From: an uncultured Candidatus Saccharibacteria bacterium
GTDB lineage: Bacteria > Patescibacteriota > Minisyncoccia > Phycocordibacterales > EsbW-18
Direction of reading: 5' to 3'
DNA length: 45,608 bases
Assembly: GCA_964478705.1 (NCBI GenBank)
Contig: CAYZIR010000007.1
Coordinates: 1 to 45,608 of the forward strand
Below, in pieces: positions 6,535 to 34,309 of the stretch; the first letter of the stretch is position 1, and every line of letters starts with the position of its first letter. Position numbers and translations under genes: made by a program. The notes beneath the pieces were generated by a model. It had not been told where the DNA came from. It worked only from the letters and a program-made list of their open reading frames with translations, and did not search any database.

Positions 6535-7032
6535 TTACTGTTTTGTTCTCTCAAGTAAACTTTTGAACTCATCGCTCGTGAGATGGAGAAGTCGAGCGTC
6601 CATACCAAGTGGAGAGTTGGTGATTTCCTCCCCCATCCACGGCTCTGGTGTATAGGTCTCTGCTGATTCGATGGATGGAAACTCTACCTCAGCACGTACC
6701 AGACCTTCAAAACGTCCGTGGTATATCTTGATAGAGATTTCTGGATTTTCTGAAATCAGATAGCCATCTCGAATGATTCCGTTGGATTCTTTCCCTTGTT
6801 TCAAGGATTCAAATTTTTCTTTTGTGATGGAATGTTTTTCTTTTTCGTGTGAGACAAAAGAGTCGGCGCCGGGTAGAGCGCGTTTGATTTCGAGTTCATA
6901 GGTATCACCCTTTTTCTGAATACGCTCTTGAACGCCGTCCGCGTCTTTTAAGAAATATCGCTCATAACGTATCGGGGGTTCCCCGGATATATCAGGTAGT
7001 GCGGTAACCAAGAATTTTCGTTCGATTTCCAT
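6535..7032 (-). CDS. CYTH-domain protein (triphosphate tunnel metalloenzyme / CyaB-like)
   Basis: N-terminal hallmark MEIERKFLV. The size (165 aa) and the alternating Glu/Lys/Arg beta-strand pattern are typical of CYTH. Confidence 0.85.
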   Translation of the reverse strand: MEIERKFLVTALPDISGEPPIRYERYFLKDADGVQERIQKKGDTYELEIKRALPGADSFVSHEKEKHSITKEKFESLKQGKESNGIIRDGYLISENPEISIKIYHGRFEGLVRAEVEFPSIESAETYTPEPWMGEEITNSPLGMDARLLHLTSDEFKSLLERTKQ

Positions 7033-7041
7033 AGATGTATT

Positions 7042-7443
7042 CTACTCCCCAAACTCCTCTTCTTCTCGCTTCTGAATCCCCTCCTCGTCATGGCCGAAAT
7101 GGTGGCCAAGTTCGTGCCATAAAGTCTCGTAAATAATGTTCTCGATGTCCTTCCCGGAATTGGCGGCTTCCTCCTCAAGAGCGAGCTTATAGAGCGTCAC
7201 AGAGTCGGGTAAAAGAGGCGCGGCGTCGTTGTCTCGTTCGGTTCGAGGCACTCCTTGATAAAGGCCTAGGAGTTCGGTCAGAGACTCAAGCGCCAGATCT
7301 TCTCGCACAGCTTCGCTTGGTACGTCCTCAACCAAAATCGCCACGTTCTGCACCTGCTCACTAATATGCTCGGGCAGTCGAGCAAAAGCGACTCCGACCA
7401 TCTCATCAAATTCTTCTTTTGTGTATGAATGCGCCTCGTTCAT
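7042..7443 (-). CDS. Small zincin-like metallopeptidase family protein (DUF1025/Zincin_1-like)
   Basis: HELGHHFGHDEEGI metal-binding motif near the C-terminus of an acidic 133-aa protein. It lies 9 nt upstream of the CYTH gene. Confidence 0.8.
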   Translation of the reverse strand: MNEAHSYTKEEFDEMVGVAFARLPEHISEQVQNVAILVEDVPSEAVREDLALESLTELLGLYQGVPRTERDNDAAPLLPDSVTLYKLALEEEAANSGKDIENIIYETLWHELGHHFGHDEEGIQKREEEEFGE

Positions 7444-7493
7444 ATAAGTCTGAGCATCTTACCCTACTCTCCACACCTCTACCAAGCATCGCT

Positions 7494-7521
7494 ATTTGCT
7501 AATTCGCACGAATTAGCAAAT
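7494..7521. promoter_or_regulatory. Perfect 13-2-13 palindrome, candidate ArsR-type operator upstream of the zincin-CYTH operon
   Basis: ATTTGCTAATTCG-CA-CGAATTAGCAAAT, 51 nt upstream of the zincin start. The core TTGCTAATTCG-N2-CGAATTAGCAA is identical to the site at 7838-7867. Confidence 0.6.
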
Positions 7522-7550
7522 ACATGCAGACGAAGCAAATCTGTTCTAGA

Positions 7551-7835
7551 TCACAGAGTAGAAAGTATATGCACTATGTAGTCTGGCAAGTCTTGCACAA
7601 TACGACAATAAACTTCCAATCTTCTCTGTTCCTTCTCCAATATATCCGCATTACGAAGAATGACGATATGCTTTGATGTCGCGTGAACCGAAAGCTTAAT
7701 ATGCCGGGCTATGATTGTTATTGACGCTTCTTTTTCTTTTTTCAAAAATGTGAGAACGCGAAGTCGACGTTCATTCGCAAGTGCCTTAAGCACCTTGGTG
7801 ATTTTTTTACTGTTTTCTTGTTTTGATGTTTTCAT
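7551..7835 (-). CDS. ArsR/SmtB-family winged-helix transcriptional regulator
   Basis: KVLKALANERRLRVLTFLKKEKEASITIIARHIKLSVHATSKHIVILRNADILEKEQ matches the ArsR HTH pattern. Start moved to ATG 7835. The upstream part of the 7551..7997 ORF is low complexity and overlaps tag. Confidence 0.85.
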   Translation of the reverse strand: MKTSKQENSKKITKVLKALANERRLRVLTFLKKEKEASITIIARHIKLSVHATSKHIVILRNADILEKEQRRLEVYCRIVQDLPDYIVHILSTL

Positions 7836-7837
7836 GA

Positions 7838-7867
7838 CACTTGCTAATTCGCGCGAATTAGCAAGTG
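7838..7867. promoter_or_regulatory. Perfect 14-2-14 palindrome abutting the ArsR start codon (candidate autoregulatory operator)
   Basis: CACTTGCTAATTCG-CG-CGAATTAGCAAGTG ends 2 nt from the ATG of the regulator. Confidence 0.6.
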
Positions 7868-7966
7868 TAGGATACGGGAGGGAGATAAGGGGAGGGTAAA
7901 AAATAATGAGAGAGGGAAGTTGTGGTTGTGGAGGATGATGATTTTTGCTGAGCGGAGTTTCCTTGA

Positions 7967-8542
7967 TTACTTCCCCACTTGTTTGTAGCGGAAGCAAGAG
8001 ACAACATGGTCATTAACCATTCCCGTTGCTTGCATGTGCGCATAGATGGTCGTTGAGCCCAAGAATTTGAATCCACGCTTCTTCAAGTCTTTCGCGAGCG
8101 TGTCTGATTCTTTTGATGTCGGTTTGTAGTCTTTGAGTGCGCGGAGTTTGTTTACTTTTGGTTTCCCGCCAACAAAATTCCAGATGTATTTTGAAAATGT
8201 GCCGAATTCTTTTTGTACCTCAAGAAAACGCTCTGCGTTATTGATTACTGCTTCGATCTTTGCTCGATTGCGAATGATACCGGCATTCTTCAAAAGTTTT
8301 GCGACATCGCGCGCGGTAAACCTCGCTACTTTCTTCGGGTCGAACCCCGCGAAGGCTTTTCGGTAGTTCTCACGCTTTCGCAACACGGTAATCCACGAGA
8401 GTCCCGCCTGTGCACTCTCGAGCACTAAAAACTCGAAGATAGTTCGGTCATCATAGACCGGAGAACCCCACTCATGGTCGTGATACATCTCGTAGAGCGT
8501 GTCGCCCTCCTTCACCCACGGGCAACGTTTTTTAGTTTTCAT
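7967..8542 (-). CDS. tag: DNA-3-methyladenine glycosylase I
   Basis: CPWVKEGDTLYEMYHDHEWG..DDRTIFEFLVLESAQAGLSWITVLRKRENYRKAF is typical Tag. Confidence 0.92.
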   Translation of the reverse strand: MKTKKRCPWVKEGDTLYEMYHDHEWGSPVYDDRTIFEFLVLESAQAGLSWITVLRKRENYRKAFAGFDPKKVARFTARDVAKLLKNAGIIRNRAKIEAVINNAERFLEVQKEFGTFSKYIWNFVGGKPKVNKLRALKDYKPTSKESDTLAKDLKKRGFKFLGSTTIYAHMQATGMVNDHVVSCFRYKQVGK

Positions 8543-8554
8543 ATCAACATATTC

Positions 8555-9061
8555 TTAGTCATTCTTCAGACAATATTGCGCGGAGGAGACTTCTAAAACC
8601 ATAGGGCCATCGTACACGAGTTTACCATCATCAAAATCTTCTCCGACATACCCAATCGTTATATGTGGCAGGAACTTTAAACTAACACCATCAAGATGTG
8701 CAAACTGTTTCAAATCCTCATGAATTTTCGTAAGGTTGCCGTCATCTTTTACTTTCAGAAACATGATTTTTGCTCGGTGGTCAGGTAATGCAAAAAAGCC
8801 GACCCCACCAATCTCAACACAATCGATTGGATTAACTACAAGAAAATCTGATATGGCTGACTGATCTATATGTTCATGGTCAAAACCGTAGAACAAGGTT
8901 AGATGGAGTTTTTCGGTCATATTTCCACCTTCTCGCTTTCCATCAACAACTGCAAAAATAAACCTGTCAGCATATTGTTCTGCCCAAGCGATGATTTTTT
9001 GCTTTGCACTATCATCAAAATCAAGTGCTACGTATCCAATCTTATGTGGTTGTGTATTCAT
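8555..9061 (-). CDS. 2H phosphoesterase superfamily protein (LigT/cyclic phosphodiesterase-like)
   Basis: Two H-x-T/S-x motifs, HLTL and HITI, with appropriate spacing in a 168-aa protein. Confidence 0.65.
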   Translation of the reverse strand: MNTQPHKIGYVALDFDDSAKQKIIAWAEQYADRFIFAVVDGKREGGNMTEKLHLTLFYGFDHEHIDQSAISDFLVVNPIDCVEIGGVGFFALPDHRAKIMFLKVKDDGNLTKIHEDLKQFAHLDGVSLKFLPHITIGYVGEDFDDGKLVYDGPMVLEVSSAQYCLKND

Positions 9062-9066
9062 ATTTC

Positions 9067-9399
9067 TTAGCGGAATTCGTAGAGCTTGTCGGCAAAGTTT
9101 TTGATGCGATCGTCTTTGTCAATTTCTATACCCTCTTCTTTGTAGAGTTTCATGCGCTTCGCGCGATACTCATCATTCACCCAAATGTGTCCGTCAGCAT
9201 AGACGATTCGATGGAAGGGAATTGAGATTCCTTGATCCGCTGCCTTCGAGAGAATCGAGGTGATGCTTTGTGCCGCCATCGCTCCCCCGCCACACGCTTT
9301 TGAAATTCGGCCGTACGTTGTGACGCGCCCTTTCGGAATTTTCCTCGCTGCATCAATCACCCGCTCGCTGAATGTAGAGCCATGGAGTTCCTTTTTCAT
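9067..9399 (-). CDS. Alkyltransferase-like (ATL) protein: MGMT DNA-binding domain without the acceptor cysteine
   Basis: IPKGRVTTYGRISK...PFHRIV. The canonical PCHR active site reads PFHR, so Cys is replaced by Phe. Confidence 0.8.
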   Translation of the reverse strand: MKKELHGSTFSERVIDAARKIPKGRVTTYGRISKACGGGAMAAQSITSILSKAADQGISIPFHRIVYADGHIWVNDEYRAKRMKLYKEEGIEIDKDDRIKNFADKLYEFR

Positions 9400-9869
9400 G
9401 AAGTATGCGATGAATGCATAAGTATGCGTACGTGCTTGAGAAGTTCATCGAGTGTAGAGAATTGCAGGAATCCATACCTCTCCTGCACCACATCGATATT
9501 CCCCTTCTTCCAGAATCCATCGGGGCACACCACAAGCAGTTTTCCGCTCTGTGCATAGAGTCCTGTTTCGAGAAGTGATATAGGGGACTTCGTGTTTGGG
9601 TCAAAGTACATGATGATGTAATCACTTTTTGAGAGCGCATCAAGCTCCCATTCCACCTGCCCTCGAAAATCTTGGTTGTCTTTGCTTTGTTCCCACGAGT
9701 TGTCCCAGCGATCGCGCCGAGGGTTGAGGAGAAGCACATCTTCATCAGCTAACTGCTCTGCGATATATTTTTGCCATTCTTCCGCAACGCCCATCTCAAT
9801 ACTTCCGCCGAGAAATATTTTTATAGTCTTTATATCCGGAATTTCATGCGGGGCTTTTATTTCGATCAT
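9396..9869 (-). CDS. Nucleoside 2-deoxyribosyltransferase-like protein
   Basis: KIFLGGSI..EEWQ..LLNPRRD..WELDALSKSDYIIMYF..SPISLLETGLYA pattern of the NDT-like fold. Its stop overlaps the ATL start (ATGA). Confidence 0.7.
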   Translation of the reverse strand: MIEIKAPHEIPDIKTIKIFLGGSIEMGVAEEWQKYIAEQLADEDVLLLNPRRDRWDNSWEQSKDNQDFRGQVEWELDALSKSDYIIMYFDPNTKSPISLLETGLYAQSGKLLVVCPDGFWKKGNIDVVQERYGFLQFSTLDELLKHVRILMHSSHTS

Positions 9870-9952: not shown

Positions 9953-11302
9953 TTATACCGCGACCGGCAAACGAACAGGTACTTCCTGTTTGTCGAGAGC
10001 CGTCGGTCCGTACGAGATGATCGAGAGAGGAACACCGAGCTCCTCCTCAACCATCTGAAAGAACAATGAGTCTTCGTTCGGTATCGACTCGTAGAGAGGA
10101 GTCACCTTCTCCAAAAGGCGCGTGAGCGTCTCTTGAAACACCAAATCGGTGAGTTCAGTCTTCACTGGTAGTCGACTGATCAGCCCAACGTCGTCATGAC
10201 TGTAGCCCGTACACATCATCTTCTGCGAGAGCGTACGAAACCTATCCATGTTCGTCATCGCAATCTGATCGACGCCTCCACACACTTCAAGTGCATAGCG
10301 CGTGAGCACTGCATCCAACCACCCGAGACGGAACGCTCCTTGCCACTCCCCTGTGCCGTTGTGCATATCGGGGATGAGCGCGGTGAGTTCCTTACTCTCG
10401 GTTGGGAATGGGCCAGCGCCGTGGCGTGTCTGATAGGCACGAACAACACCGAGCCGAGTAACATCTCCTTCGAAGTTGATATCGCGAAGAATCTCAAGCG
10501 CATTCGCGAATGTCGTGGTGCTCCACGTGGTATGCGGATGAAATCCGTACCACTCATCCAAGAGTACACCTTGTGCACCTTCGAGGATGAGGTCACCTTC
10601 TTCGGCACGTCGCTTGAGGTAGGTATCTCCGACGATCGGGAATTGTTGAGAGATCTTCCACATCGCCTCTGCATATTCACTCGGTGCAGAGCTCTGCTCG
10701 AGAATATCGATCTCTTCCGCGATGTGCGGGAGATGTTTGATACCATCAAGCAAACCAGTGAACTCAGCGCGCTTCATTTCTTGAACTTCAGAGAGAAGAC
10801 GAGCGAGTCGTTTTGGGTCACGGAGATCTGCTCCAACCACCTTGAGGTCGGGTCGCACAATTGAATCGTGGGTCGTTTCTCCGATTCCCATACCACAACT
10901 GCCATGCCTGGCGTTCCCGCGAAGCGCTTCCCTGAGTCGGTTTGCGGACTTCTGAAAACGCGTCACCACAAGCGCTTGCTCATGGAGCGAAAACCGGCTG
11001 TACACATTGCCACAACCAAGCTCTCGCAAATGACGAGCTTCCGGCTCAATCGCGAGCGGGTCGAAGAGCGAGAATCGAGAGATGTGCGTTTTCACACCTT
11101 GCACGAACGTTCCGCTCCCAAATTGCGCGAAGGTGTGATGCCGTCCATCAGGAGTAATGACGTTGTGCGCCGCCTGACCGCCTCCGTTGAATCGGACGAC
11201 GGTCGAAACGGACTTGTTCCGAGCAAGGTAGTCGACGATCGATCCCTTGCCCGCATCGCCAAAACCAAGATCGACAACGATTGTTGCATTCCGTTTTGAC
11301 AC
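9953..11302 (-). CDS. Divergent adenylosuccinate synthetase (PurA) family protein
   Basis: VVDLGFGDAGKGSIVDYL, GGGQAAHN, LEGAQG, TRHGAGPFPTE, GWLD and SYGP match the PurA signature order. Start set to GTG 11302, preceded by GGAGG. The TTG at 11359 would place a terminator hairpin inside the CDS. Confidence 0.85.
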   Translation of the reverse strand: MSKRNATIVVDLGFGDAGKGSIVDYLARNKSVSTVVRFNGGGQAAHNVITPDGRHHTFAQFGSGTFVQGVKTHISRFSLFDPLAIEPEARHLRELGCGNVYSRFSLHEQALVVTRFQKSANRLREALRGNARHGSCGMGIGETTHDSIVRPDLKVVGADLRDPKRLARLLSEVQEMKRAEFTGLLDGIKHLPHIAEEIDILEQSSAPSEYAEAMWKISQQFPIVGDTYLKRRAEEGDLILEGAQGVLLDEWYGFHPHTTWSTTTFANALEILRDINFEGDVTRLGVVRAYQTRHGAGPFPTESKELTALIPDMHNGTGEWQGAFRLGWLDAVLTRYALEVCGGVDQIAMTNMDRFRTLSQKMMCTGYSHDDVGLISRLPVKTELTDLVFQETLTRLLEKVTPLYESIPNEDSLFFQMVEEELGVPLSIISYGPTALDKQEVPVRLPVAV

Positions 11303-11315
11303 GCCGTGCCTCCGT

Positions 11316-11350
11316 GGAAAAGAAAAGCCGGGCTCTGTGGAGAGCCCGGC
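11316..11350 (-). terminator. Strong intrinsic terminator between the vWA gene and the PurA-like gene
   Basis: GCCGGGCTCT(11327-11336)/AGAGCCCGGC(11341-11350), a perfect 10-bp stem with a 4-nt loop. The minus strand continues TTTTCTTTTCC. Confidence 0.65.
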
Positions 11351-11364
11351 GGATTGCAATTCGA

Positions 11365-12381
11365 TTAGATCCGAGAAACTCCAGAACTACCAGCACCGAC
11401 GCCACCAGGAAGCGTTCCCGTTGCTACGTGTGCAGGCATCCGTGACTTTGCGACGGTTGCGAGCGCATTCGAAACGGATGTCCGCGCTCCACCACGCAAG
11501 TCGAGATCGTCCGCGACCATCACGAGATCCTTCGCGGTCTCGAGCATGTGGATGACACCAGCGATTGTCTCACAGACGAGATCGGCGTCGTCGAGAAGTA
11601 GAAGCCGTTCGCCGAGGAGATGGCGCCAGTTCTTCTGCACCCGTGGTTCACTGCCGTGTGCGGTGTTGCCCGAGAGGCAGATGTGGTAAATCTCCCATCG
11701 TTCGGACGCGCGAGCGATGAGATCCTTCACGGATTCGTCACTCGTCGCTTCGATGCCGAAAATATCCTGCACCTGACACTTCGTGACCGTCGGCCACGTC
11801 ATCTCGTCACCCATGGTGAAGAGATAGCCCTTCTTGCCACGCTTCTCGAACGAGTCGGTTGCGGTGTGATGTGCTGCGAATCGATACGCGAGAGCGTAGG
11901 ATTCGTGCACTTGCCCGCCACCACCACCTTCGAGGATGATGTTGCGGAGGGCCTCGTCGAACCGGTTGTCCGATTCGAACTGCCCGACTTGGAATGGATA
12001 CTGGTCGCACGTCGCATCGCCGATTGCACCGACGAGGACTTGCGGGTCCTTGATGCCGGTTTTGGCGAGAACGACGTCCATCAGCTTCGTCAACTTCTGC
12101 TGAAGCGTTCGTGGAACACTTCCCATCGATCCCGTGACGTCGAAGAAAACGGCGATCGGAAGCGATTCGGGATGCTCATCGCTATCCCTGCTCTCCCGAA
12201 CGTTCTGCCCTGCGAGCGGGCTCGTCGGCCCTGCGACGGTCTTCGGGTCGAGACTCGGATGAATTCCACTTGCCCGACCCGCCTTGACGTCTCTGTCGTG
12301 TTCGAAATCGTCGACACCACGTGTGCGACGATCCTCCCTGGCACGACTGTACGAACTCGAATCCCATCTACCGCCACCCAT
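11365..12381 (-). CDS. von Willebrand factor A (vWA) domain protein with a MIDAS-like motif and a disordered Arg/Asp-rich N-terminus
   Basis: IAVFFDVTGSMGS (D-x-T-x-S), then GAIGDATCD and LFTMGDEM downstream. AAGGAG RBS 8 nt upstream of ATG 12381. Confidence 0.8.
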   Translation of the reverse strand: MGGGRWDSSSYSRAREDRRTRGVDDFEHDRDVKAGRASGIHPSLDPKTVAGPTSPLAGQNVRESRDSDEHPESLPIAVFFDVTGSMGSVPRTLQQKLTKLMDVVLAKTGIKDPQVLVGAIGDATCDQYPFQVGQFESDNRFDEALRNIILEGGGGGQVHESYALAYRFAAHHTATDSFEKRGKKGYLFTMGDEMTWPTVTKCQVQDIFGIEATSDESVKDLIARASERWEIYHICLSGNTAHGSEPRVQKNWRHLLGERLLLLDDADLVCETIAGVIHMLETAKDLVMVADDLDLRGGARTSVSNALATVAKSRMPAHVATGTLPGGVGAGSSGVSRI

Positions 12382-12408: not shown

Positions 12409-13581
12409 TTAGCTCTGCATGGGAAGCGGGCGATAGCCACGCCCCCATTCCTTCCTGATGACACGGGTAAATTCATCAAGAAGTTCTTGCCCTGTTTGGA
12501 AACGCTCTCCACGAGAGTCTTTGACCGTACGAAGAACAACTGCACTGACCGACGAGGGCACTGCCGAGGGAATCGTGTTGGTTGCTGTGTTCCCGCCAAG
12601 AAGAGCGATCATCATTTTTCCAGCCATAAAAAGGTCGGTGCGACGATCGGGTTCTTCTTTTCTCAGCACCTCTTTCGGGTAGAAATCCTTCCACCGATCT
12701 ATGACATGCATCACTCGAAGATGCGAATGCGTCGGATCCTCGATCGCGTGAGCCCATCCAATGTGAAGTGGCTCGCGCTTTATTGGATCGACAAGAACGT
12801 GATCCGGTGTAATCGCCGAATGGACGACACCAGCCATATCAGCGGCAATCGTTTGCGCGATGATACGACGGAATATCCACCCCGCATGCTCAGGATCGAC
12901 CCCCTTCGGATATGCGCGCATGATGTCTGCGACCGATACAAGACCGTCGACATACGCGAGCACGTTGACCGCGTAGCGCGTTCCGTTCGGGCCGTTCATG
13001 AAGAACGACTCAACGAGCTTTGGAACAAACTGTGCGATTTTCGAAAGAGGATCGGACGCTCCTGCATCTCTGAAGCGCGAAAGAATCTTTGCCTCAGATG
13101 CAAGCCATCCATTGAACGACGGTTGTGACGATACTTTCACAAGCACCTCGCCTCCCGTCCCACCGATGACCTTCGCGCGATAAATCACGGAGAAGTCGCC
13201 GGTTTTGTATGGCGTTGAGAAGAGGTGATACGTGTGAAGTGGTGATGTGATTTCGGACACCGATTGTTTCGGAGAGCCTTTCGACGAAGCATTAGAAAAC
13301 GCTCCGGCGGTAAAAGGCTTTCCATAGGTTCCTACATTGATTGCTCGTTCAGCCGCATGACGGATGTCAGTAAGCTGACGAAACACATCTGCAGCTTCTA
13401 CTGCAAGGTGCTTCTCGACGTGATCGGGATGCACCATGAGTACAAGTTGTCTGAATTGCCGTCGCAGAGCACTCTGTTGCTTCGAGATTGCGCCGTCCGG
13501 CAATGTGCCGAAGATGCTGATGAAGCTCGTTGCCACACGAAGTTGTCTACCGACGCTTTCGAGGGTATCTGCTCCGGACAT
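12409..13581 (-). CDS. J-domain (HPD) fused to a protein-kinase-like domain with degenerate catalytic motifs (predicted pseudokinase)
   Basis: LRRQFRQLVLMVHPDHV...FRQLTDIRHAAERAI is J-domain helix II-HPD-helix III. Kinase-like features are TGDFSVIYRA, VLVKV, EAKIL, VVHSAITPDHVLV (HRD Asp becomes Ala), HIGWA in place of DFG, FYPKEV and TDLFMAGKMMIALLGG. AGGAGG RBS 9 nt upstream. Confidence 0.8.
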   Translation of the reverse strand: MSGADTLESVGRQLRVATSFISIFGTLPDGAISKQQSALRRQFRQLVLMVHPDHVEKHLAVEAADVFRQLTDIRHAAERAINVGTYGKPFTAGAFSNASSKGSPKQSVSEITSPLHTYHLFSTPYKTGDFSVIYRAKVIGGTGGEVLVKVSSQPSFNGWLASEAKILSRFRDAGASDPLSKIAQFVPKLVESFFMNGPNGTRYAVNVLAYVDGLVSVADIMRAYPKGVDPEHAGWIFRRIIAQTIAADMAGVVHSAITPDHVLVDPIKREPLHIGWAHAIEDPTHSHLRVMHVIDRWKDFYPKEVLRKEEPDRRTDLFMAGKMMIALLGGNTATNTIPSAVPSSVSAVVLRTVKDSRGERFQTGQELLDEFTRVIRKEWGRGYRPLPMQS

Positions 13582-13670
13582 AGCTCTCTGCCTCCTGTGG
13601 TTCTATGAAGTAGTGAAGCGCGAGTGTCCTCGCATCCTCTACGTTGACAAAGAACACGATACTCTAATTT

Positions 13671-13691
13671 GAAGTGTCTTTAATACACTAA
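13671..13691. promoter_or_regulatory. NrtR-type box A (GAAGTGT-N7-ACACTAA) in the 5' UTR region of the J-domain operon
   Basis: Matches the 21-bp palindrome TTAGTGT-N7-ACACTAA at 12 of 14 half-site positions. Confidence 0.5.
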
Positions 13692-13736
13692 CTGAGGATA
13701 AAAAATATATCCCCATCAGAGTCCGCTCTACCCTGA

Positions 13737-13765
13737 AGACTACTCTTCCTCTTACTTAGTGTCAA
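13737..13765 (-). promoter_or_regulatory. Candidate promoter of the J-domain/vWA operon (TTGACA-17-TAGTCT)
   Basis: The -35 TTGACA (rc of 13760-13765) lies inside box B. The -10 TAGTCT is the rc of 13737-13742. Confidence 0.45.
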
Positions 13766-13776
13766 TAGTACACAAT
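13756..13776. promoter_or_regulatory. NrtR-type box B (TTAGTGT-CAATAGT-ACACAAT)
   Basis: Left half is perfect and the right half matches 5 of 7. It overlaps the -35 of the minus-strand promoter. It forms an 18-bp inverted repeat (one mismatch) with 13792-13809. Confidence 0.55.
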
Positions 13777-13788
13777 ATGTACTGTGTA

Positions 13789-13809
13789 TAAGTGTAGTAT
13801 TGACACTAA
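13789..13809. promoter_or_regulatory. NrtR-type box C (TAAGTGT-AGTATTG-ACACTAA)
   Basis: 13 of 14 half-site matches. It overlaps the -35 TTGACA of the nrtR promoter. Confidence 0.55.
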
Positions 13810-13828
13810 ATAGATTTACCGGTATAGT
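13800..13828 (+). promoter_or_regulatory. nrtR promoter TTGACA-17-TATAGT, with the -10 ending 8 nt before the ATG (leaderless geometry)
   Basis: TTGACA 13800-13805, TATAGT 13823-13828, ATG 13837. Confidence 0.55.
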
Positions 13829-13836
13829 TCCCTTCT

Positions 13837-14535
13837 ATGAAACACCCAATCCCCTCACAAGCCCCCGACCACCTGCGCTTTGCTGTGCTTGCCTGCGATG
13901 TGGCGATCTTTACCATTAAAGACAACACACTCTACGTACGCACCGTTACTGTTAACCGCCCTCCGAGTTTCATTAATAGCCGAGGACTTCCTGGTGGACT
14001 CCTCCTCCCCCACGAGACAGCCGAAGAAGCAGCACTTCGTCATATCACCGAAAAGGCATTGATCAGCACAAAAAAAATATACATGGAACAGCTCTACACA
14101 TTTAGTAGAGTTGATCGTGATCCTCGTGGACGCGTCGTTGCTGTGGCATACCTCTGCCTCGTGCCATGGGAGTCTCTTTCCGCAATCGAACAATCCGATA
14201 CTGACGGCGCTCGTTGGATGCCAGTTTCTGATGCAAAGAAACTCGCATACGATCATGACGAGATACTCTCGGTTGCGGTCAATCGTCTTCGCTCACGCAT
14301 AACGTACACAACACTCATCAGCAAACTCATCCCAGTAGAATTCACGCTCTCTGACCTCGAACGTGCGTACGCATCAATCCTCGCAACCACGCTCGACAAA
14401 CGAAACTTCCGAAAAAAAGTTGAAAAACTCAAAATACTCACGGAACTTCCGTACAAACGGACCGGTGGAGCCTTTCGACCAGCGGCGCTCTACAAGTTCG
14501 CTTCGAATAAAGTCAAAGAAATCGAGATTCTCTAA
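13837..14535 (+). CDS. nrtR: NrtR-family Nudix-related transcriptional regulator of NAD metabolism
   Basis: N-terminal Nudix fold with a degenerate Nudix box (GGLLLPHETAEEAALRHITEKALI). C-terminal wHTH region (YDHDEILSVAVNRLRSRITYTTL..LDKRNFRKKV). 232 aa, adjacent to nadM/Nampt. Confidence 0.88.
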   Translation: MKHPIPSQAPDHLRFAVLACDVAIFTIKDNTLYVRTVTVNRPPSFINSRGLPGGLLLPHETAEEAALRHITEKALISTKKIYMEQLYTFSRVDRDPRGRVVAVAYLCLVPWESLSAIEQSDTDGARWMPVSDAKKLAYDHDEILSVAVNRLRSRITYTTLISKLIPVEFTLSDLERAYASILATTLDKRNFRKKVEKLKILTELPYKRTGGAFRPAALYKFASNKVKEIEIL

Positions 14536-14542
14536 CTCTCTC

Positions 14543-14569
14543 AAAAAGCCCTTCCTTACGGGGCTTTTT
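14543..14569 (+). terminator. Intrinsic terminator after nrtR
   Basis: AGCCC/GGGCT stem followed by TTTTT. Confidence 0.65.
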
Positions 14570-14589
14570 GCTATCCACAGATACCGTTG

Positions 14590-14618
14590 TTGACAATCGA
14601 ATGCTTATTGTATAAGAT
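14590..14618 (+). promoter_or_regulatory. Candidate nadM promoter (TTGACA then TATAAG at 15 nt or TAAGAT at 17 nt)
   Basis: TTGACA at 14590-14595. The -10 candidates at 14611-14618 are overlapped by NrtR-type box E. Confidence 0.5.
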
Positions 14619-14625
14619 ACACTTA
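14605..14625. promoter_or_regulatory. NrtR-type box E (TTATTGT-ATAAGAT-ACACTTA)
   Basis: 12 of 14 half-site matches. It overlaps the -10 region of the nadM promoter. Confidence 0.45.
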
Positions 14626-14662
14626 GTATGGGGTTGGGAAGACATATATTTTTTACCTTCAG

Positions 14663-14683
14663 TTAGTGTAATAAATACATTAT
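14663..14683. promoter_or_regulatory. NrtR-type box D (TTAGTGT-AATAAAT-ACATTAT)
   Basis: Left half is perfect and the right half matches 5 of 7. It lies between the promoter and the nadM RBS. Confidence 0.45.
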
Positions 14684-14724
14684 CTACCCTCTCCGCCATG
14701 TTCTTTGACAAGGAGAAAATACAC

Positions 14725-15633
14725 ATGCAACCAGAAACCATCGGAGTTATCGTCGCTCGGTTTCAGGTTCCCTGCCTCCACAAAGGGCATCGGTATCTGA
14801 TCAACTACGTGAACTCGCGCTGTGAGAAGCTCGTCATCGTTCTCGGTACGCCACGGTCCTTCCCTACCAAGAAGAACCCTCTGTCATTCGAGATGCGACG
14901 AGTAATGATTGCGCGACAGTATCCGAATGCGATCATCGCGTCGCTTCCCGATACCAAGCTCGACGCGCAGTGGAGCACCGCACTTGATGCTGTCATCGCC
15001 TCCGCTCTGTGCGGAAAGGTTGACGGCATACAAGTGACGCTCTACGGGTCGCGCGATTCCTTCATTACGCACTACAGTGGTGTGCATCAGACCGAACTCG
15101 TTCCCCCTCTGGGCAACGTGAACGGCACGAAGCACCGCGAACGCCTCGCAGATGTCGCCGACTCGGTGAAATTCCGCGAAGGCATCATTCACACACAGAT
15201 GAGCCGTCCGCCGATCGTCTACCCGACGGTCGACGTGGCCATCATCCGCGCTGAAACCGGAGAAGTACTCCTCGGCGGAAAAGCGTGTGACGGCGGAAAG
15301 CTCCGCTTCATCGGAGGCTTCGTCGATCCGACAAAGGATGCCTCGTATGCAGACGCCGGAAAGCGCGAAGCATTCGAGGAAACCAACGGTATGGAAATCG
15401 CCGACCTGAAACAAATCGGCTCGGCCAAGATCGATGACTGGCGATATCGTGGCACGGAAGACTGTGTCATAACGTCATTCTTCATCGCTACGTACGTATT
15501 CGGGGCTCTCACGCCAAGTGACGACCTCGACTATCTCACGTGGATCCCTGTTCTGCAGGTCATGGAACACCTCGTTCCTGAGCACGAGCCATTGGGGCAC
15601 ATGCTCATCTCGCATTTCAACCAGACACTCTGA
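14725..15633 (+). CDS. nadM: Bifunctional NMN adenylyltransferase (NadM-type) / Nudix hydrolase
   Basis: IGVIVARFQVPCLHKGHRYL carries the nucleotidyltransferase HxGH motif. The C-terminal Nudix box is GGFVDPTKDASYADAGKREAFEETNG. AAGGAG RBS 9 nt before ATG 14725. The 14587 TTG extension is rejected. Confidence 0.88.
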   Translation: MQPETIGVIVARFQVPCLHKGHRYLINYVNSRCEKLVIVLGTPRSFPTKKNPLSFEMRRVMIARQYPNAIIASLPDTKLDAQWSTALDAVIASALCGKVDGIQVTLYGSRDSFITHYSGVHQTELVPPLGNVNGTKHRERLADVADSVKFREGIIHTQMSRPPIVYPTVDVAIIRAETGEVLLGGKACDGGKLRFIGGFVDPTKDASYADAGKREAFEETNGMEIADLKQIGSAKIDDWRYRGTEDCVITSFFIATYVFGALTPSDDLDYLTWIPVLQVMEHLVPEHEPLGHMLISHFNQTL

Positions 15634-15644
15634 AGGAGAGTGCT

Positions 15645-17048
15645 ATGAACGCGAACATGGAAATCGGCAACACCATCACCCGCACCGACAGCTACAAGGT
15701 CACGCATCACCTGCAGTACCCCGGAAAGACGGAGATCCTTTTTTCCTTCTTCGAGAGTCGCGGTGGCGATTTCCCCACGGTCACCTTCTACGGCCTCCAG
15801 TATTACCTCAAGCGGTATCTCGAGGGCGTTGTGGTCACCGAGAAGATGTTGCCGAAGGCCCGTCGGCGCTTCGCCGCGCACTTCGGATCCACCAAGCTCT
15901 TCAATGAACAGGCGTGGCAGAGAATCATCGATGTGCACGGTGGCAAGTTGCCCATCCGCATCAAGGCGGTTCCCGAGGGGACGACCATCCCCACGAGCAA
16001 CGTGTTGATGACGGTCGAAAACACCGATCCTGAGATTCCGTGGGTCACGAACTACGTTGAGACACTTCTCTCGATGTTGTGGTATCCGTCGACGGTGGCA
16101 ACCCAGAGCCGTGCGATGCGGAAGCTCGTTCTCTCCTTCCTAGAAGAGACTGGCGATCCGTCACTCATCGACTTCAAGGTTCACGATTTCGGATTCCGTG
16201 GCTCGACTTCGGTCGAATCCGCGGGAATCGGTGGCTCGGCTCATCTCGTTTCCTTCAAGGGAACGGACACACTGGTTGCGCTCGACATCGCTGAGGATTA
16301 CTACGGAGAAGAGTGTGCGGGATTTTCCATCCCCGCCGCTGAGCACTCCACGATCACTTCGTGGGGCAGAGCTCGAGAGGTGGACGCCTATGAGAACATG
16401 CTCACGGCGTTCCCGACCGGCCTCGTTGCGGTGGTTTCCGACAGCTACGACATCTTCCGCGCCTGCAGTGAACTCTGGGGCAAGGAACTTCGTGACAAGG
16501 TTCTCAATCGCGATGGTGTCTTGGTGGTTCGTCCTGACAGTGGATACCCGCCGGACGTGGTCGTGAAGGTGCTCGATATTCTCGGCAACGCCTTCGGCTA
16601 CAGCATCAACGGCAAGGGCTACAAGGTCTTGAACCCGAAGGTGCGCGTCATCCAGGGCGATGGCATCGACTTCTCGATGCTTCGCCGAGTACTCGAAGCG
16701 ATGAAACAGCACGGCTGGTCGGCCGACAACGTCGCGTTCGGTTCCGGTGGTGGCCTTCTGCAGAAGCTGAACCGCGATACCTTGAAGTTCGCGTTCAAAG
16801 CCTGTGCAGTCCGCATCGAAGATCTCTGGCACGACGACATCATGAAGGACCCGGTGACGGATCATTCCAAGCGTTCGAAGGCTGGTCGTCTCGTCCTCGT
16901 CAAGGATGACAAGGAATGGAAGACCGTGCGCGAAGAGGAAGCGATGCGTGCAGGGCTCAACAACGAGCTCGTCACGGTTTTCGAGAATGGTGAAGTCCTT
17001 GTGGACTACACGTTCAGCGAGATCCGCGAACGAGCGCTCGTCGGCTGA
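15645..17048 (+). CDS. nadV: Nicotinamide phosphoribosyltransferase (Nampt/NadV)
   Basis: TDSYKVTHHLQYP, HDFGFRGSTS and VVSDSYD are classical Nampt motifs. 467 aa. Confidence 0.93.
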   Translation: MNANMEIGNTITRTDSYKVTHHLQYPGKTEILFSFFESRGGDFPTVTFYGLQYYLKRYLEGVVVTEKMLPKARRRFAAHFGSTKLFNEQAWQRIIDVHGGKLPIRIKAVPEGTTIPTSNVLMTVENTDPEIPWVTNYVETLLSMLWYPSTVATQSRAMRKLVLSFLEETGDPSLIDFKVHDFGFRGSTSVESAGIGGSAHLVSFKGTDTLVALDIAEDYYGEECAGFSIPAAEHSTITSWGRAREVDAYENMLTAFPTGLVAVVSDSYDIFRACSELWGKELRDKVLNRDGVLVVRPDSGYPPDVVVKVLDILGNAFGYSINGKGYKVLNPKVRVIQGDGIDFSMLRRVLEAMKQHGWSADNVAFGSGGGLLQKLNRDTLKFAFKACAVRIEDLWHDDIMKDPVTDHSKRSKAGRLVLVKDDKEWKTVREEEAMRAGLNNELVTVFENGEVLVDYTFSEIRERALVG

Positions 17049-17117: not shown

Positions 17118-17141
17118 TTCCCGCACATTGTGCTCAATTAA

Positions 17142-17178
17142 AAAAGCGCCGTCTCGTTAGAGACGGCGCAGGAAGAAC
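17142..17178 (-). terminator. 37-bp repeat copy 1: terminator of the HD-hydrolase gene
   Basis: AAAAGCGCCGTCTCGTTAGAGACGGCGCAGGAAGAAC. GCGCCGTCTC/GAGACGGCGC is a perfect 10-bp stem with a T-run on the minus strand. Identical to 17856-17892. Confidence 0.7.
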
Positions 17179-17179
17179 T

Positions 17180-17785
17180 TCAGCCAAGGCTTGCGAGTGC
17201 CTCCTCAATCTCGTGCATCAAGATGAGGTGCTTCCACGCGTGCGGAAGGTAGTAGCGTCTCGTCTCCTCGATTTTCCGCCGTCGCTTTTCTGGGGTGCAT
17301 GCATACAGCGTCAACAGGTTGTGGAGGCGATCAGCCAATTTGATGATGAAAAAGTCTCGCGGAGCGGACTCGAACCGGGTGTGGTAGACGAGTTCTCGTT
17401 CCTCACGATCCGGATAGTCCTTCTTCGAAGGCTTGGTCAGATACTCGACCAAGAGTGCCACACGATCGCCATACTTTCTCCGTACCCGCTCAACCGTCCA
17501 TTCAGGGATGTCTTCCACGATATCGTGGAGAAGCCCTGCGATGATGAGCTCGTGATTCTTGATGCGAAGGTAGTGAAGCAGGATCAACGTGACGGCGCGA
17601 ATGTGCTCGAAATATCGCGTCTCTTGGTCGTCGCGAAACTTTCCACGAAACGCGTCCTTCGCGTCATCGTACGCTTGTATGATCAACGTATGACGCCAGT
17701 CGAGCGTCGGGTAGTGCAACGCCACTCGCCTGAAGAAAGTCGCACGATTTTCCGCTGCGGTCAGAAACTCCATTCTCTTAGTCAT
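17180..17785 (-). CDS. Stand-alone RelA/SpoT-type HD hydrolase (small alarmone hydrolase-like)
   Basis: HIRAVTLILL..AGLLHDIVEDI..YGDRVALLVEYLTKP..IKLADRLHNLLTL matches the (p)ppGpp hydrolase domain. No synthetase domain. AGGAGG RBS. Confidence 0.85.
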   Translation of the reverse strand: MTKRMEFLTAAENRATFFRRVALHYPTLDWRHTLIIQAYDDAKDAFRGKFRDDQETRYFEHIRAVTLILLHYLRIKNHELIIAGLLHDIVEDIPEWTVERVRRKYGDRVALLVEYLTKPSKKDYPDREERELVYHTRFESAPRDFFIIKLADRLHNLLTLYACTPEKRRRKIEETRRYYLPHAWKHLILMHEIEEALASLG

Positions 17786-17842: not shown

Positions 17843-17855
17843 TTCTTTCAAATAT

Positions 17856-17892
17856 AAAAGCGCCGTCTCGTTAGAGACGGCGCAGGAAGAAC
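17856..17892 (-). terminator. 37-bp repeat copy 2: terminator of the zinc-ribbon gene
   Basis: Identical 37-mer to 17142-17178. Confidence 0.7.
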
Positions 17893-19869: not shown

Positions 19870-19944
19870 GGCCCCATCGTCTAGCCTGGCCTAGGACGTC
19901 GCCTTCTCAAGGCGAAAACTCGGGTTCGAATCCCGATGGGGTCA
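19870..19944 (+). tRNA. tRNA-Glu (anticodon CUC)
   Basis: Cloverleaf: acceptor GGCCCCA/TGGGGTC, 3-bp D stem GTC/GAC, anticodon stem TCGCC/GGCGA with loop TTCTCAA, T arm TCGGG-TTCGAAT-CCCGA, discriminator A. CCA is not fully encoded. Confidence 0.9.
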
Positions 19945-19956
19945 CCGTCAACAGCG

Positions 19957-21520
19957 CACACGAGAAGAATGTATAAAGTATGAAGAAAATAAATTTTATA
20001 CAATCTGAAACTGGTATAGGTATGGAACTAGAGCTTAGTTCCAACCTTGTTATTGTTGGGGCTAATGGTTCAGGTAAATCAAGATTTGGTTCTACCCTTG
20101 AAAAAAATAACCCTCATTCTAAAAGAATATCTGCCCAAAGATATCTACAACTTCAAGAAAACGTTCAGAAGCAAGATTTTGAAAGTGCTGAAAACAGTCT
20201 TAAATCAGTTTTCAAAAACCAATCTGTAATCACTCCTCAAAATGATTTTCAACAAGCACTCATTACTCTTTTTGCTGAAGAGGGTAAAAGAGATGCTGAA
20301 TATGTTGCCCAGGCAAAATTAAGTGGTAAAACCAAACTAGAAATACCTCAGTCAAAAAAAGAACAAGTACTTGATGTTTGGAGCTTTGTTTTTCCTAACA
20401 GGTTGTTAAAACTTGAAAAAGATAGAATCAAAGGCGTAAGTGATACCAATGAATTTTCTGGCTCAGAATTAAGTGATGGAGAAAGAGTTGGTTTGTATCT
20501 TATCTCTCAAGTATTACTTGCTCCCCAAGATTGTCTACTTATCATAGACGAGCCGGAAATACACTTACATAAATCTTTAATGACGAGATTGTGGAATAAG
20601 CTGGAAAATGTAAGAAGTGATTGTACTTTTATTTACATTACACACGATCTAGATTTTGCAGTCTCAAAGTCTGCTTCAAAAACAATATGGATTGAGTGGT
20701 ATAAGGACTTAAAGTGGAAATGGACAGAGATTAGCTCTGCTGAATACATACCTGACAACTTGCTCCTAGAAGTTCTTGGTAGTAGAAATCCAATTTTATT
20801 TGTTGAGGGAGATAAGGGCAGTTTAGATCAACAACTATACCAGTCTTACTATGAACATTTTACTGTCATACCAAGAGGTAGTTGTGAGAAGGTTATTGAA
20901 GCAGTCAAGGGTCTCAATGATAACCAATCATTGCATCACAATAAGGCTTTTGGCTTAATTGACCGAGATTATAGGATTGAGGCAGAAATAACTACACTCA
21001 AGAGCAAAAATATATTTACTACTCCGACCAAACATATTGAAAATATATTTTTGTTTCCTGAAATTATTGGAATAGTTGCGGAATATCTTTCTCAAAAAGA
21101 AAAGAAAGACATAATAATTACTGAAATAAAAGAGGAGTTTAAGTCCCAACTAGAAAATATTAACTTTTCAATTAAAAAAACGAGATTGTTAAGTTATCTA
21201 GCAAGAGAAGCTGGCCAGATAAAAGATGAAGCTTCTCTGGTAAATTTTAAGTCTAGATTATCAAGTGGGATTGATACTTTCCTTGGTACCATTACACCTG
21301 TTGTTGAAACTGAAGATATCTTAGAGATCTTAAAACTATACCCTCACAAAGGTTTAGTTTCTAAAGCCCAATCTCAATTAGGAATAAAAGATAATTTATA
21401 TCAAAACATTGTTCTTAGTTTTCTAACATCTCAAAAGAGAAAAGAATTAACGGAAATACTTAAAAAGTATTTACCTGATATATCTTAAGTGTAGTTGAAT
21501 TATTATAGTCACACGAGAAG
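19957..21520 (+). mobile_element. AT-rich single-gene insertion bounded by 11-bp direct repeats CACACGAGAAG
   Basis: Repeats at 19957-19967 and 21510-21520 bracket the 19980..21488 gene exactly. A sampled 60-nt stretch is ~28% GC against 42-55% in the flanks. It sits 13 nt after the tRNA-Glu. Confidence 0.55.
19980..21488 (+). CDS. ABC-type ATPase fused to a DUF4435/TOPRIM-like domain (OLD/PARIS-like defence candidate)
   Basis: Walker A GANGSGKS, signature-like LSDGER, Walker B LLIIDEPEIHLH and H-loop ITHD. The C-terminal part has ILFVEGDKGSLD...GLIDRDYR (E...DxD Toprim-like). Confidence 0.8.
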   Translation: MKKINFIQSETGIGMELELSSNLVIVGANGSGKSRFGSTLEKNNPHSKRISAQRYLQLQENVQKQDFESAENSLKSVFKNQSVITPQNDFQQALITLFAEEGKRDAEYVAQAKLSGKTKLEIPQSKKEQVLDVWSFVFPNRLLKLEKDRIKGVSDTNEFSGSELSDGERVGLYLISQVLLAPQDCLLIIDEPEIHLHKSLMTRLWNKLENVRSDCTFIYITHDLDFAVSKSASKTIWIEWYKDLKWKWTEISSAEYIPDNLLLEVLGSRNPILFVEGDKGSLDQQLYQSYYEHFTVIPRGSCEKVIEAVKGLNDNQSLHHNKAFGLIDRDYRIEAEITTLKSKNIFTTPTKHIENIFLFPEIIGIVAEYLSQKEKKDIIITEIKEEFKSQLENINFSIKKTRLLSYLAREAGQIKDEASLVNFKSRLSSGIDTFLGTITPVVETEDILEILKLYPHKGLVSKAQSQLGIKDNLYQNIVLSFLTSQKRKELTEILKKYLPDIS

Positions 21521-34306: not shown

Positions 34307-34309
34307 ACA

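Follow-up and report, generated by a model that had tools for sequence, protein, structure and literature searches.

Candidate NrtR operators shared by NAD salvage genes and a J-pseudokinase, vWA, and PurA-like gene trio in a CPR-type chromosome

Is an unnamed operon placed under the same regulatory switch as NAD salvage in a bacterium of the candidate phyla radiation (CPR)? This question is raised by a 45.6-kb stretch of DNA (contig CAYZIR010000007.1, referred to at its full length as the window), in which a gene encoding an NrtR-family regulator is located directly upstream of the NAD salvage genes nadM-nadV and is divergent from an operon encoding a J-domain protein, a von Willebrand factor A (vWA) protein, and a protein resembling adenylosuccinate synthetase (PurA-like), hereafter the trio. 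An earlier note made from the sequence alone had claimed that five palindromic boxes place the trio operon in the NrtR regulon together with NAD salvage. This claim was supported by footprinting across related loci and by the fusion of these genes into a single operon in a viral genome, and we consider it likely that the five boxes serve as NrtR operators and that the trio operon is a genuine member of the predicted regulon.

The boxes and their regulator

We searched the entire window for TTAGTGT-N7-ACACTAA with up to 2 mismatches, using dinucleotide-preserving shuffles as controls. Five boxes were identified (A to E in Table 1), whereas the shuffles contained a mean of 0.05 and never reached five. 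Boxes A to E deviate from the consensus by 2, 2, 1, 2, and 2 mismatches, respectively, which corresponds to 12 to 13 of the 14 half-site bases and agrees with the number, positions, and match quality given in the earlier note. No further site with ≤2 mismatches exists elsewhere in the window. A sixth site at 34293-34313 contains 3 mismatches and was judged to be a chance occurrence, because 1.27 sites are expected at ≤3 mismatches.

Inspection of the region separating nrtR from the trio operon revealed that boxes B and C are indeed the arms of an inverted repeat (13753-13773 and 13792-13812), with computed arms of 21 nt that are 90% complementary. As the earlier note stated, each arm also embeds the TTGACA -35 hexamer of a predicted outward-facing promoter. 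The predicted nrtR promoter matches the consensus at 11 of 12 positions, but the -10 element facing the J-domain gene (J gene) matches at only 3 of 6, and this promoter fell below the threshold of the consensus scan and was found by direct inspection of the sequence. Only 8 nt separate the -10 element of nrtR from the ATG at 13837, and the nrtR mRNA is therefore probably leaderless; the equivalent position of a related locus (L007, described below) reads TTGACA-16-TATAAT-6 nt-ATG. On the nadM side, the promoter scan and the sequence both agreed with the proposed locations of box D on the -10 element and box E in the leader. Box A is found ~40 to 60 nt downstream of the predicted start of the J operon and 90 to 110 nt upstream of the ATG at 13581, which is consistent with its proposed location in a ~150-nt 5' untranslated region, given that this start is a predicted one. 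A hairpin followed by a T-run separates nrtR from nadM, even though it was not listed by the consensus terminator scan.

Table 1. Coordinates of the regulator, its candidate operators, the flanking operons, and predicted transcription signals in the window.
Feature	Coordinates	Strand	Size or sequence	Description
PurA-like	9953-11359	-	468 aa as open reading frame	Divergent adenylosuccinate synthetase paralog
vWA protein	11365-12381	-	338 aa	Metal ion-dependent adhesion site (MIDAS) D81-x-T83-G-S85; N-terminus MGGGxW..Y
J-pseudokinase	12409-13581	-	390 aa	J-domain fused to Hanks-type kinase fold
Box A	13671-13691		GAAGTGTCTTTAATACACTAA	Predicted leader of J-pseudokinase operon; 2 mismatches
Predicted J-operon promoter	13737-13765	-	TTGACA-17-TAGTCT	-35 within box B; weak -10
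Box B	13756-13776		TTAGTGTCAATAGTACACAAT	On the minus strand, holds TTGACA -35 of predicted J-operon promoter
Box C	13789-13809		TAAGTGTAGTATTGACACTAA	Holds TTGACA -35 of predicted nrtR promoter (putative autoregulation)
Predicted nrtR promoter	13800-13828	+	TTGACA-17-TATAGT	-35 within box C
nrtR	13837-14535	+	232 aa	Nudix-like effector domain and winged-helix DNA-binding domain
Hairpin and T-run after nrtR	14542-14570	+	CAAAAAGCCC...GGGCTTTTTG	Perfect 10-nt inverted repeat
Predicted nadM promoter	14590-14618	+	TTGACA-17-TAAGAT	10/12 match; -10 within box D
Box D	14605-14625		TTATTGTATAAGATACACTTA	Spans -10 of predicted nadM promoter
Box E	14663-14683		TTAGTGTAATAAATACATTAT	nadM leader, 42 nt upstream of ATG
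nadM	14725-15633	+	302 aa from ATG	AAGGAG ribosome-binding site; nicotinamide mononucleotide (NMN) adenylyltransferase-Nudix fusion
nadV	15645-17048	+		Nicotinamide phosphoribosyltransferase; NAPRTase and NAMPT_N

Riboswitches or other RNA elements in the leaders were also considered and rejected, as Rfam yielded nothing within 13500-14800 at E ≤1 and only tRNA across the whole window. It should be noted that an 11-mer, GTTCTTTGACA, is present just 5' of the nadM ribosome-binding site (14700-14710, plus strand), with a 1-mismatch copy in the J leader of the window (13645-13655, minus strand) and further copies 5' of the J-gene ribosome-binding site in four of the related loci described below (L003, 5008-5018; L004, 9970-9980; L005, 9932-9942; L006, 9962-9972). 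Small hairpins that might sequester the Shine-Dalgarno sequence are predicted around it, but these were rejected for scoring no better than shuffles (z of -0.9 to +0.5, and -1.9 for the J leader).

As judged from its sequence, the 232-aa protein is an NrtR-family regulator. It matches PF21906 (1e-19) and NUDIX PF00293 (1.8e-10), while its match to the NCBIfam NrtR equivalog NF050029 (2.8e-35, 122 bits) is below the 400-bit cut-off, making it a divergent member of the family. Its best solved relatives in PDB are BtAraR (5bs6), which is the top match, and SoNrtR from Shewanella (3gz5), both of which align over the full length. In the BtAraR-DNA complex, the GTGT motif is defined by four residues of the recognition helix (Lys179, Arg180, Asn181, and Lys184) and two of the wing (Lys204 and Arg205) (PMC4666351). 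The recognition helix of the window NrtR, DKRNFRK, is identical to the BtAraR helix that contains K179, R180, N181, and K184, and it is invariant across all 8 CPR orthologs; of the two wing residues, R205 is kept and K204 is not. NrtR sites have been described as 21-bp palindromes with a conserved GT-N7-AC core that are located on promoters or between the promoter and the start codon, and their binding by NrtR is abolished by ADP-ribose in vitro (PMC2330246). The boxes of the window fit this published signature in length, core, and promoter or leader placement, with the promoters being predicted.

We also mapped the ADP-ribose contact residues of SoNrtR, as given in the BtAraR paper (PMC4666351), onto the window NrtR via the alignment. 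K73 and R97 preserve the ligands Lys76 and Arg98, whereas the arabinose sensor BtAraR has Leu67 and Gly89 at these positions. Arg86 and His131 of BtAraR, whose positions are spatially conserved in SoNrtR, likewise have preserved counterparts in R94 and H140, and the Nudix box is degenerate (RH...EK), as it is in SoNrtR. A nucleotide-diphosphate-sugar ligand, such as ADP-ribose, is a likely candidate for the effector.

The wiring in related loci

A genome collection was scanned with an alignment of 9 J-protein homologs, which identified seven loci (L001-L007). Together with L008, which resides on a 770-kb contig, these comprise 8 independent CPR loci and 151 kb in total. Using Markov simulations for the expectation, we counted 27 boxes with ≤2 mismatches versus 0.53 expected, and 26 of the 27 are located upstream of nrtR, the J gene, nadM, a Prs-like gene, or an ADP-ribosylglycohydrolase (ARG) gene. 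The single exception lies inside a YceI gene in L003. Enrichment of the motif in relatives, including upstream of NAD genes, is in line with the regulon that the earlier note had proposed.

In all seven genome loci, nrtR adjoins the trio, in which the gene order is J, vWA-like, PurA-like, and boxes are located upstream of the J gene in each of them (in L002 only at 3 mismatches). The arrangement of the genes did vary however. The J gene is divergent from nrtR in the window, L002, and L007, whereas the two genes are in tandem in L003-L006. In these four loci, three boxes belong to the J gene, one of them containing a -35-like hexamer, another box precedes nrtR, and no nadM or nadV match was detected in the fetched flanks (5 to 10 kb upstream and ~7 to 10 kb downstream). 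L003 and L004 also contain a terminator-like hairpin, read by eye, between nrtR and the J-gene promoter, which suggests that the J gene has a promoter of its own. Since the tandem loci combine this layout with a separate three-box promoter, the link to the J gene does not appear to be a by-product of a shared divergent promoter.

The organization of the J-gene upstream regions was quite similar among the relatives as well. From L002 to L007, a TTGACA or TTGAGA -35-like hexamer is embedded in a box and is followed by a 17-nt spacer and TAnnnT, while a further box overlaps or follows the -10 element, and in L003-L007 a third box equivalent to box A is present downstream of the promoter. L008 contains two 1-mismatch boxes on a TTGACT-17-TATACT promoter, 47 to 70 nt upstream of the J gene, and no nrtR match within the 8 kb fetched on each side of that gene. 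Two other loci connect the boxes to genes of NAD and ADP-ribose metabolism. In L007, nadM-nadV is present with two boxes (0 and 1 mismatch) upstream of nadM, and an ARG gene (8025-9044, minus strand) with its own box is located between nrtR and the NAD salvage genes. In L001, both a Prs-like phosphoribosyl pyrophosphate synthetase gene (6822-7697, plus strand), which also has its own box, and nadV lie between nrtR and the J gene, with the Prs-like gene on the nrtR side of nadV. Scanning metagenomes with the NrtR protein gave no more than two loci, both uninformative.

Much of this arrangement is highly reminiscent of the NrtR NAD regulons (PMC2330246; SoNrtR, 3gz5), which likewise combine a Nudix-like and winged-helix repressor having a degenerate Nudix box and its E-K pair with 21-bp GT-N7-AC operators in promoters and leaders, nadM-nadV or prs-nadV as targets, and ADP-ribose as the known anti-repressor. 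It differs in its CPR-type host, in the -35 hexamers built into the boxes, and in the content of the predicted regulon, to which the J-pseudokinase/vWA/PurA-like operon and, in relatives, the ARG gene are added, with the trio being the sole neighboring target in several relatives. Control of non-NAD genes by the NrtR family is known from the ara/xyl genes of Bacteroidetes and from nrtR-draG in Streptomyces (PMC2330246). BtAraR (PMC4666351; 5bs6) provides such a precedent and shares the recognition helix, the GTGT core, and tandem operators with the window NrtR, except that it has lost the ADP-binding residues that are kept here as Lys and Arg and that its effector and regulon are different.

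The trio and its viral copies

The first product of the trio operon was described as a J-domain protein in the earlier note. While the J-domain is present, this label is incomplete, as the J-domain is fused to a kinase-fold domain lacking the catalytic Asp. The HPD motif occupies residues 51-53, and H51-P52-D53 is invariant or nearly so in an alignment of 18 homologs. The AlphaFold 2 model has a pLDDT of 89 (~90 for the N-terminal helices), and Foldseek matched it to PknB (target-normalized TM of 0.78, E of 9e-11) as well as to a J-PKA (DnaJ-PKA) chimera. Pfam gave no match for the window protein itself, while PF00226 was recorded on two of its homologs, graded as 'faint' where a grade was given; the protein belongs to phrog_3043 ('kinase'). 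Its catalytic loop reads HGAITPDH in place of HRDxKxxN, with HGA found in all 18 aligned homologs and in the phage versions, and the DFG position is occupied by GW in the closer CPR-type homologs (P0001-P0042) and by DW in the distant and phage ones. The 390-aa protein is therefore probably a J-domain pseudokinase or an atypical kinase or enzyme. Models of defense kinases from PADLOC produced only partial matches to its kinase domain, with PD-T4-6 at 4e-10 and MAD6 at 19 bits versus a 460-bit cut-off.

The 338-aa vWA protein likewise had no Pfam match. Its AlphaFold 2 model (pLDDT of 73.6) was matched by Foldseek to the SpaC vWFA domain, VWF A1, integrin I-domains, and NorD, all with a probability of 1.00 and a target-normalized TM of ≤0.64, and it matches phrog_2971 (unknown function) at 228 bits. 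The family is large, comprising 1,686 clusters at 50% identity (E ≤1e-3). D81, T83, and S85 are invariant columns of the homolog alignment, so the MIDAS is intact. The homologs from CPR, mycobacteriophages, Vibrio and Rhizobium phages, and IMG/VR (L008-L068) start with MG[GS][GS]xW[SD]xxxY and contain RESRDSxxHP(E/N)S ahead of the MIDAS motif. The conserved start suggests that the N-terminus may be processed, modified, or bound by a partner.

The third protein matches PF00709 (1.7e-67) and phrog_1211. With PurA and phage PurZ it has in common the fold and the catalytic core (GDxGKG, His41, EGAQG, TR-G-GPFPTE, Asp333), which takes the form of P-loop GDAGKG, AAH (His41), EGAQG (Gln224), TRHGAGPFPTE (T-R, Asp-binding), and D333, the first four of which are conserved across 68 family members. 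Unlike PurA and PurZ, it is always partnered with the vWA protein and usually with the pseudokinase, and it falls below the NCBIfam cut-offs of both. It scored 190 bits versus 402 for the PurA equivalog NF002223 and 160 bits versus 396 for TIGR00184, and identity with PurZ was rejected on the basis of 50.7 bits versus the 300-bit cut-off of NF038379. Family-wide changes were also found at N38 (to Q), T129 (to C), R143 (not conserved), and Lys331 (to His, Cys, or Asn). From the literature on E. coli PurA, we take Asn38, Thr129, and Arg143 to be ligands of the 5'-phosphate of inosine monophosphate (IMP) and Lys331 to determine guanine specificity. Directly downstream of the PurA-like gene is a nucleoside 2-deoxyribosyltransferase-like gene (9396-9869, minus strand; PF15891, phrog_30579), which is not kept beside the trio in the CPR-type loci L001-L013 and has a weak match in the viral locus L053.

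The pairing of a vWA gene with an adjacent Hanks-type kinase-fold gene also resembles the TerY-P triad, which Anantharaman et al. in 2012 reportedly described as a vWA protein, a Ser/Thr kinase, and a PP2C phosphatase. In contrast to that triad, no PP2C phosphatase was seen in the loci examined, the third member is the PurA-like enzyme, and the kinase-fold protein of the trio has a J-domain but no catalytic Asp.

Copies of the trio were abundant among phages, which we surveyed by tblastn against GenBank phages and by a scan of IMG/VR that identified 55 loci. The kinase, vWA-like, and PurA-like genes are located side by side in ~200 Bxz1-like mycobacteriophages (per NCBI taxonomy), for example as gp256-259 of MoMoMixon, in which the kinase also has the HPD motif, and the vWA-like/PurA-like pair occurs in ~195-kb Vibrio phages and ~207-kb Rhizobium phages. 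Among the IMG/VR loci, 52 of 55 contain both the vWA and PurA-like genes and 35 contain the kinase gene as well, while nrtR is found in 6 and nadV in 7. In L030, a 416-kb viral contig, nrtR-vWA-nadM-nadV-purA-like-kinase abut or overlap as one operon with a GTGT-N7-ACAC box 8 nt upstream of nrtR. Five more viral loci exhibit nrtR-nadV-vWA...purA-like-kinase clusters, and a pair of neighboring TTTGTGT-N7-ACACCAT-type boxes precedes nrtR in L048, L050, and L057. Viral contigs also carry nrtR-nadM-nadV cassettes (L073), with the trio interleaved in some (L030), and NrtR is encoded next to NAD salvage genes in Bacillus phage G and a 636-kb uncultured phage. Unlike the CPR clade, the phage NrtR proteins (L030, L048, L050, L053, L057, L068, L073, L009, and L072) keep the canonical Nudix box GX5EX7REUXEEXGU, so these homologs may be both ADP-ribose hydrolases and repressors. 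Apart from these clusters, the stretch upstream of the vWA/PurA-like pair in Rhizobium phage RHph_TM30 (L016, 270-6996) contains genes for a calcineurin-like phosphoesterase, a HAD hydrolase, a ComF-like PRTase_3, a Nudix protein, and a HIRAN protein, a neighborhood that is reminiscent of the Ter-type 'nucleoside-like metabolite' neighborhoods, PRTase_3 and HAD being Ter-type genes.

Predicted regulation, competing readings, and genomic context

The boxes, their conservation among relatives, the linkage of the genes, and the folds of the proteins are shown by the analysis, whereas in the model that follows, we infer the effector (ADP-ribose), the sign of regulation, the binding itself, the transcription starts, and the biochemistry of the trio. 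Each NrtR dimer would read two GTGT/ACAC half-sites through its DKRNFRK helix. By occupying the -35 elements of the back-to-back promoters, boxes B and C would place both nrtR itself and the trio operon under control, while box D would cover the -10 element of the nadM-nadV promoter, and boxes A and E would provide second sites in the leaders, either as roadblocks or as cooperative partners. Upon binding of an NAD-derived ligand, most likely ADP-ribose as the product of NAD cleavage, to the catalytically dead Nudix domain, the repressor would leave the DNA, and NadV and NadM salvage would be switched on together with the trio. The trio would represent a mobile module common to large phages that is functionally tied to NAD/ADP-ribose metabolism.

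What the trio might do can be proposed only tentatively. One possibility, to which we assign a rather modest likelihood, is a nucleotide conversion that supports the rebuilding of NAD and adenylates. The PurA-like enzyme would catalyze an adenylosuccinate-synthetase-type ligation on a 6-oxopurine nucleotide, rebuilding the adenine nucleotides needed for NAD, and the vWA protein and J-pseudokinase would be its binding or regulatory partners and would recruit Hsp70. To a similarly tentative degree, the trio might constitute an undescribed nucleotide-conversion system that responds to NAD/ADP-ribose status. Large phages, and CPR bacteria having acquired it, would use it alongside NadV/NadM, for instance to extend the reconstitution of NAD+ and adenylates when immunity targets NAD or ATP. 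The PurA-like enzyme would then act not on plain IMP but on, for example, an ADP-ribose analog or a dinucleotide containing hypoxanthine, and the vWA protein with its invariant MGGGxW could be an obligate partner or even a substrate of the PurA-like enzyme. As the trio is abundant in phages and interleaved there with nrtR, nadV, and nadM, a tie to phage defense or counter-defense is plausible. As summarized in PMC13464706, the phage NAD+ reconstitution pathway NARP2 converts nicotinamide to NMN and then to NAD, which corresponds to the NadV and NMN adenylyltransferase pair of the window. The window pair differs from NARP2 as defined by being chromosomal and associated with NrtR boxes, and the vWA, PurA-like, and kinase proteins fall outside this definition. 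Literature searches found no paper combining 'NARP2' and 'adenylosuccinate' and none that reports the trio or connects it with NrtR or NARP2.

By themselves, the boxes are ordinary, as NrtR operators are a known kind of site. What is new is a widespread, unnamed three-gene module predicted to be under the same NAD/ADP-ribose switch as NAD salvage. The NrtR family would gain a non-canonical regulon from CPR bacteria, a poorly studied group, and the finding offers a first functional handle on the trio, namely when it is expressed and with which pathway, and it makes testable whether the trio helps to rebuild NAD and adenine nucleotides during phage-host conflict.

Several observations weigh against parts of this model. 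Arg41 of SoNrtR aligns with V39 in the window NrtR (an Arg is found two residues on), the adenine-stacking Phe15 aligns with L13, and Tyr10 is likewise without clear conservation, so the effector could be another NAD-related ligand. The family member NdnR responds to NAD itself (PMC4666351), which makes the direction of the response uncertain. Given its poor -10 element, the J operon could have its true start elsewhere. One further locus, L012, has the trio but neither nrtR nor boxes, and nrtR is missing beside many of the phage copies as well, from which it follows that NrtR control is frequent rather than obligatory. Lastly, the changes at the presumed IMP 5'-phosphate ligands imply that plain IMP may not be the substrate of the PurA-like enzyme.

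The main alternative for the function of the trio is a role in bacterial anti-phage defense of the abortive-infection type, with NrtR silencing the trio until it is fired by ADP-ribose arising from phage or immune activity. Such an arrangement would be analogous to the predicted ADP-ribose conflict systems centered on ARG, which feature Nudix-HTH (helix-turn-helix) or WYL regulators and sometimes include vWA 'chaperone' partners and alarmone-type HD phosphatases (Iyer et al. 2022; PMC9503650, section 3.8). The window shares with these systems an NrtR-like repressor predicted to sense ADP-ribose as well as vWA and HD neighbors, and an ARG gene is part of the putative regulon in L007. A SpoT-like HD gene beside nadV, a PARIS-like AriAB gene 3 kb further, and the PADLOC matches of the kinase domain point in the same direction. 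However, the PADLOC matches cover only the generic kinase fold, and no nuclease, NADase, or pore effector is present. No ARG (PF03747) was found among the window proteins scanned, and the trio is set apart from the ARG-centered systems by its link to NAD salvage genes and its abundance in phages; PMC9503650 does not mention PurA-like or J-domain proteins, while kinases were not searched for in that text. The trio also resides in bona fide phage genomes, including the Bxz1-like, Vibrio, and Rhizobium phages and all 55 IMG/VR contigs, and a phage-beneficial or metabolic role therefore fits better than host suicide. We consider a defense role unlikely.

Still less likely is that the PurA-like protein is a housekeeping adenylosuccinate synthetase placed under NrtR because AMP/ATP feeds NAD synthesis, with the J-pseudokinase and vWA protein as mere passengers. 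Its catalytic motifs are largely intact, and the box upstream of the Prs-like gene in L001 has a counterpart in prs-nadV, a known NrtR target (PMC2330246). The three genes co-travel, however, across CPR, actinophages, proteobacterial phages, and viral contigs, and both the 190-bit score versus the 402-bit cut-off and the family-wide changes at positions for IMP phosphate and guanine specificity set the protein apart from PurA.

It is also very improbable that the boxes serve only nrtR autoregulation and nadM-nadV, with the J operon being touched merely through a shared divergent region. Where the J gene is divergent from nrtR, as in the window, L002, and L007, autoregulatory boxes would lie near the J gene in any case, and the weak J-facing -10 element favors this explanation as well. 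It is contradicted by the tandem loci L003-L006 with their three J-gene boxes and, in L003/L004, the hairpin after nrtR, by the two boxes on the J promoter of L008, whose fetched flanks contain no nrtR match, and by box A of the window, which is on the J side at a distance of 145 nt from the start of nrtR. Binding of the palindromes by another regulator, for which the window offers an ArsR-type HTH gene, or their coincidental presence near nrtR as non-functional repeats is scarcely credible, as motif, spacing, and core agree with the NrtR family (PMC2330246), the recognition helix equals the GTGT-reading helix of a solved family member, and the motif co-occurs with nrtR in related loci, with a variant motif accompanying the variant phage NrtR.

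As for the NAD salvage genes of the window, NadV scored 611 bits against NF006629, which is above the cut-off, and matches phrog_448. The assignment of nadM is supported by NUDIX (2.6e-6) and by phrog_395 (cytidyltransferase), whereas its matches to models of bifunctional NMN adenylyltransferase/Nudix proteins are weak and all far below their cut-offs. The remainder of the window encodes housekeeping proteins (DnaE, ThrRS, MreB, PBPs, MraW, LysRS, and MnmA), and its closest relatives are metagenome-assembled genomes of Kaiserbacteria, Parcubacteria, and 'Saccharibacteria', which together identify it as a CPR-type bacterial chromosome. The block at 10-18 kb, from the PurA-like gene to the HD gene, has a GC content of 53-56% versus 45-49% in its flanks, and each of its proteins matches a phage orthologous group (PHROG). 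This block looks horizontally acquired, although no att-like direct repeat joins the tRNA-Glu gene to its left end.

Several minor features of the window were also recorded. The SpoT-like HD gene next to nadV (17180-17785) is flanked by two copies of a 45-nt terminator-like hairpin that are 96% identical (17134-17178 and 17848-17892) and thus looks like an inserted cassette. Approximately 3 kb beyond it and immediately 3' of tRNA-Glu(CTC), a 502-aa AriA/AriB fusion (PARIS-like, ATPase-DUF4435; 19870-21488) matches PADLOC PDLC02982 at 2e-119, and its GC content of 37% together with its position 3' of the tRNA gene gives it the appearance of a small defense islet. Lastly, the 24-nt perfect palindrome TTGCTAATTCGC(A/G)CGAATTAGCAA is present in two copies (7496-7519 and 7841-7864) that flank or overlap the ArsR-type HTH gene (7551-7997), and these may be the operators of that gene.

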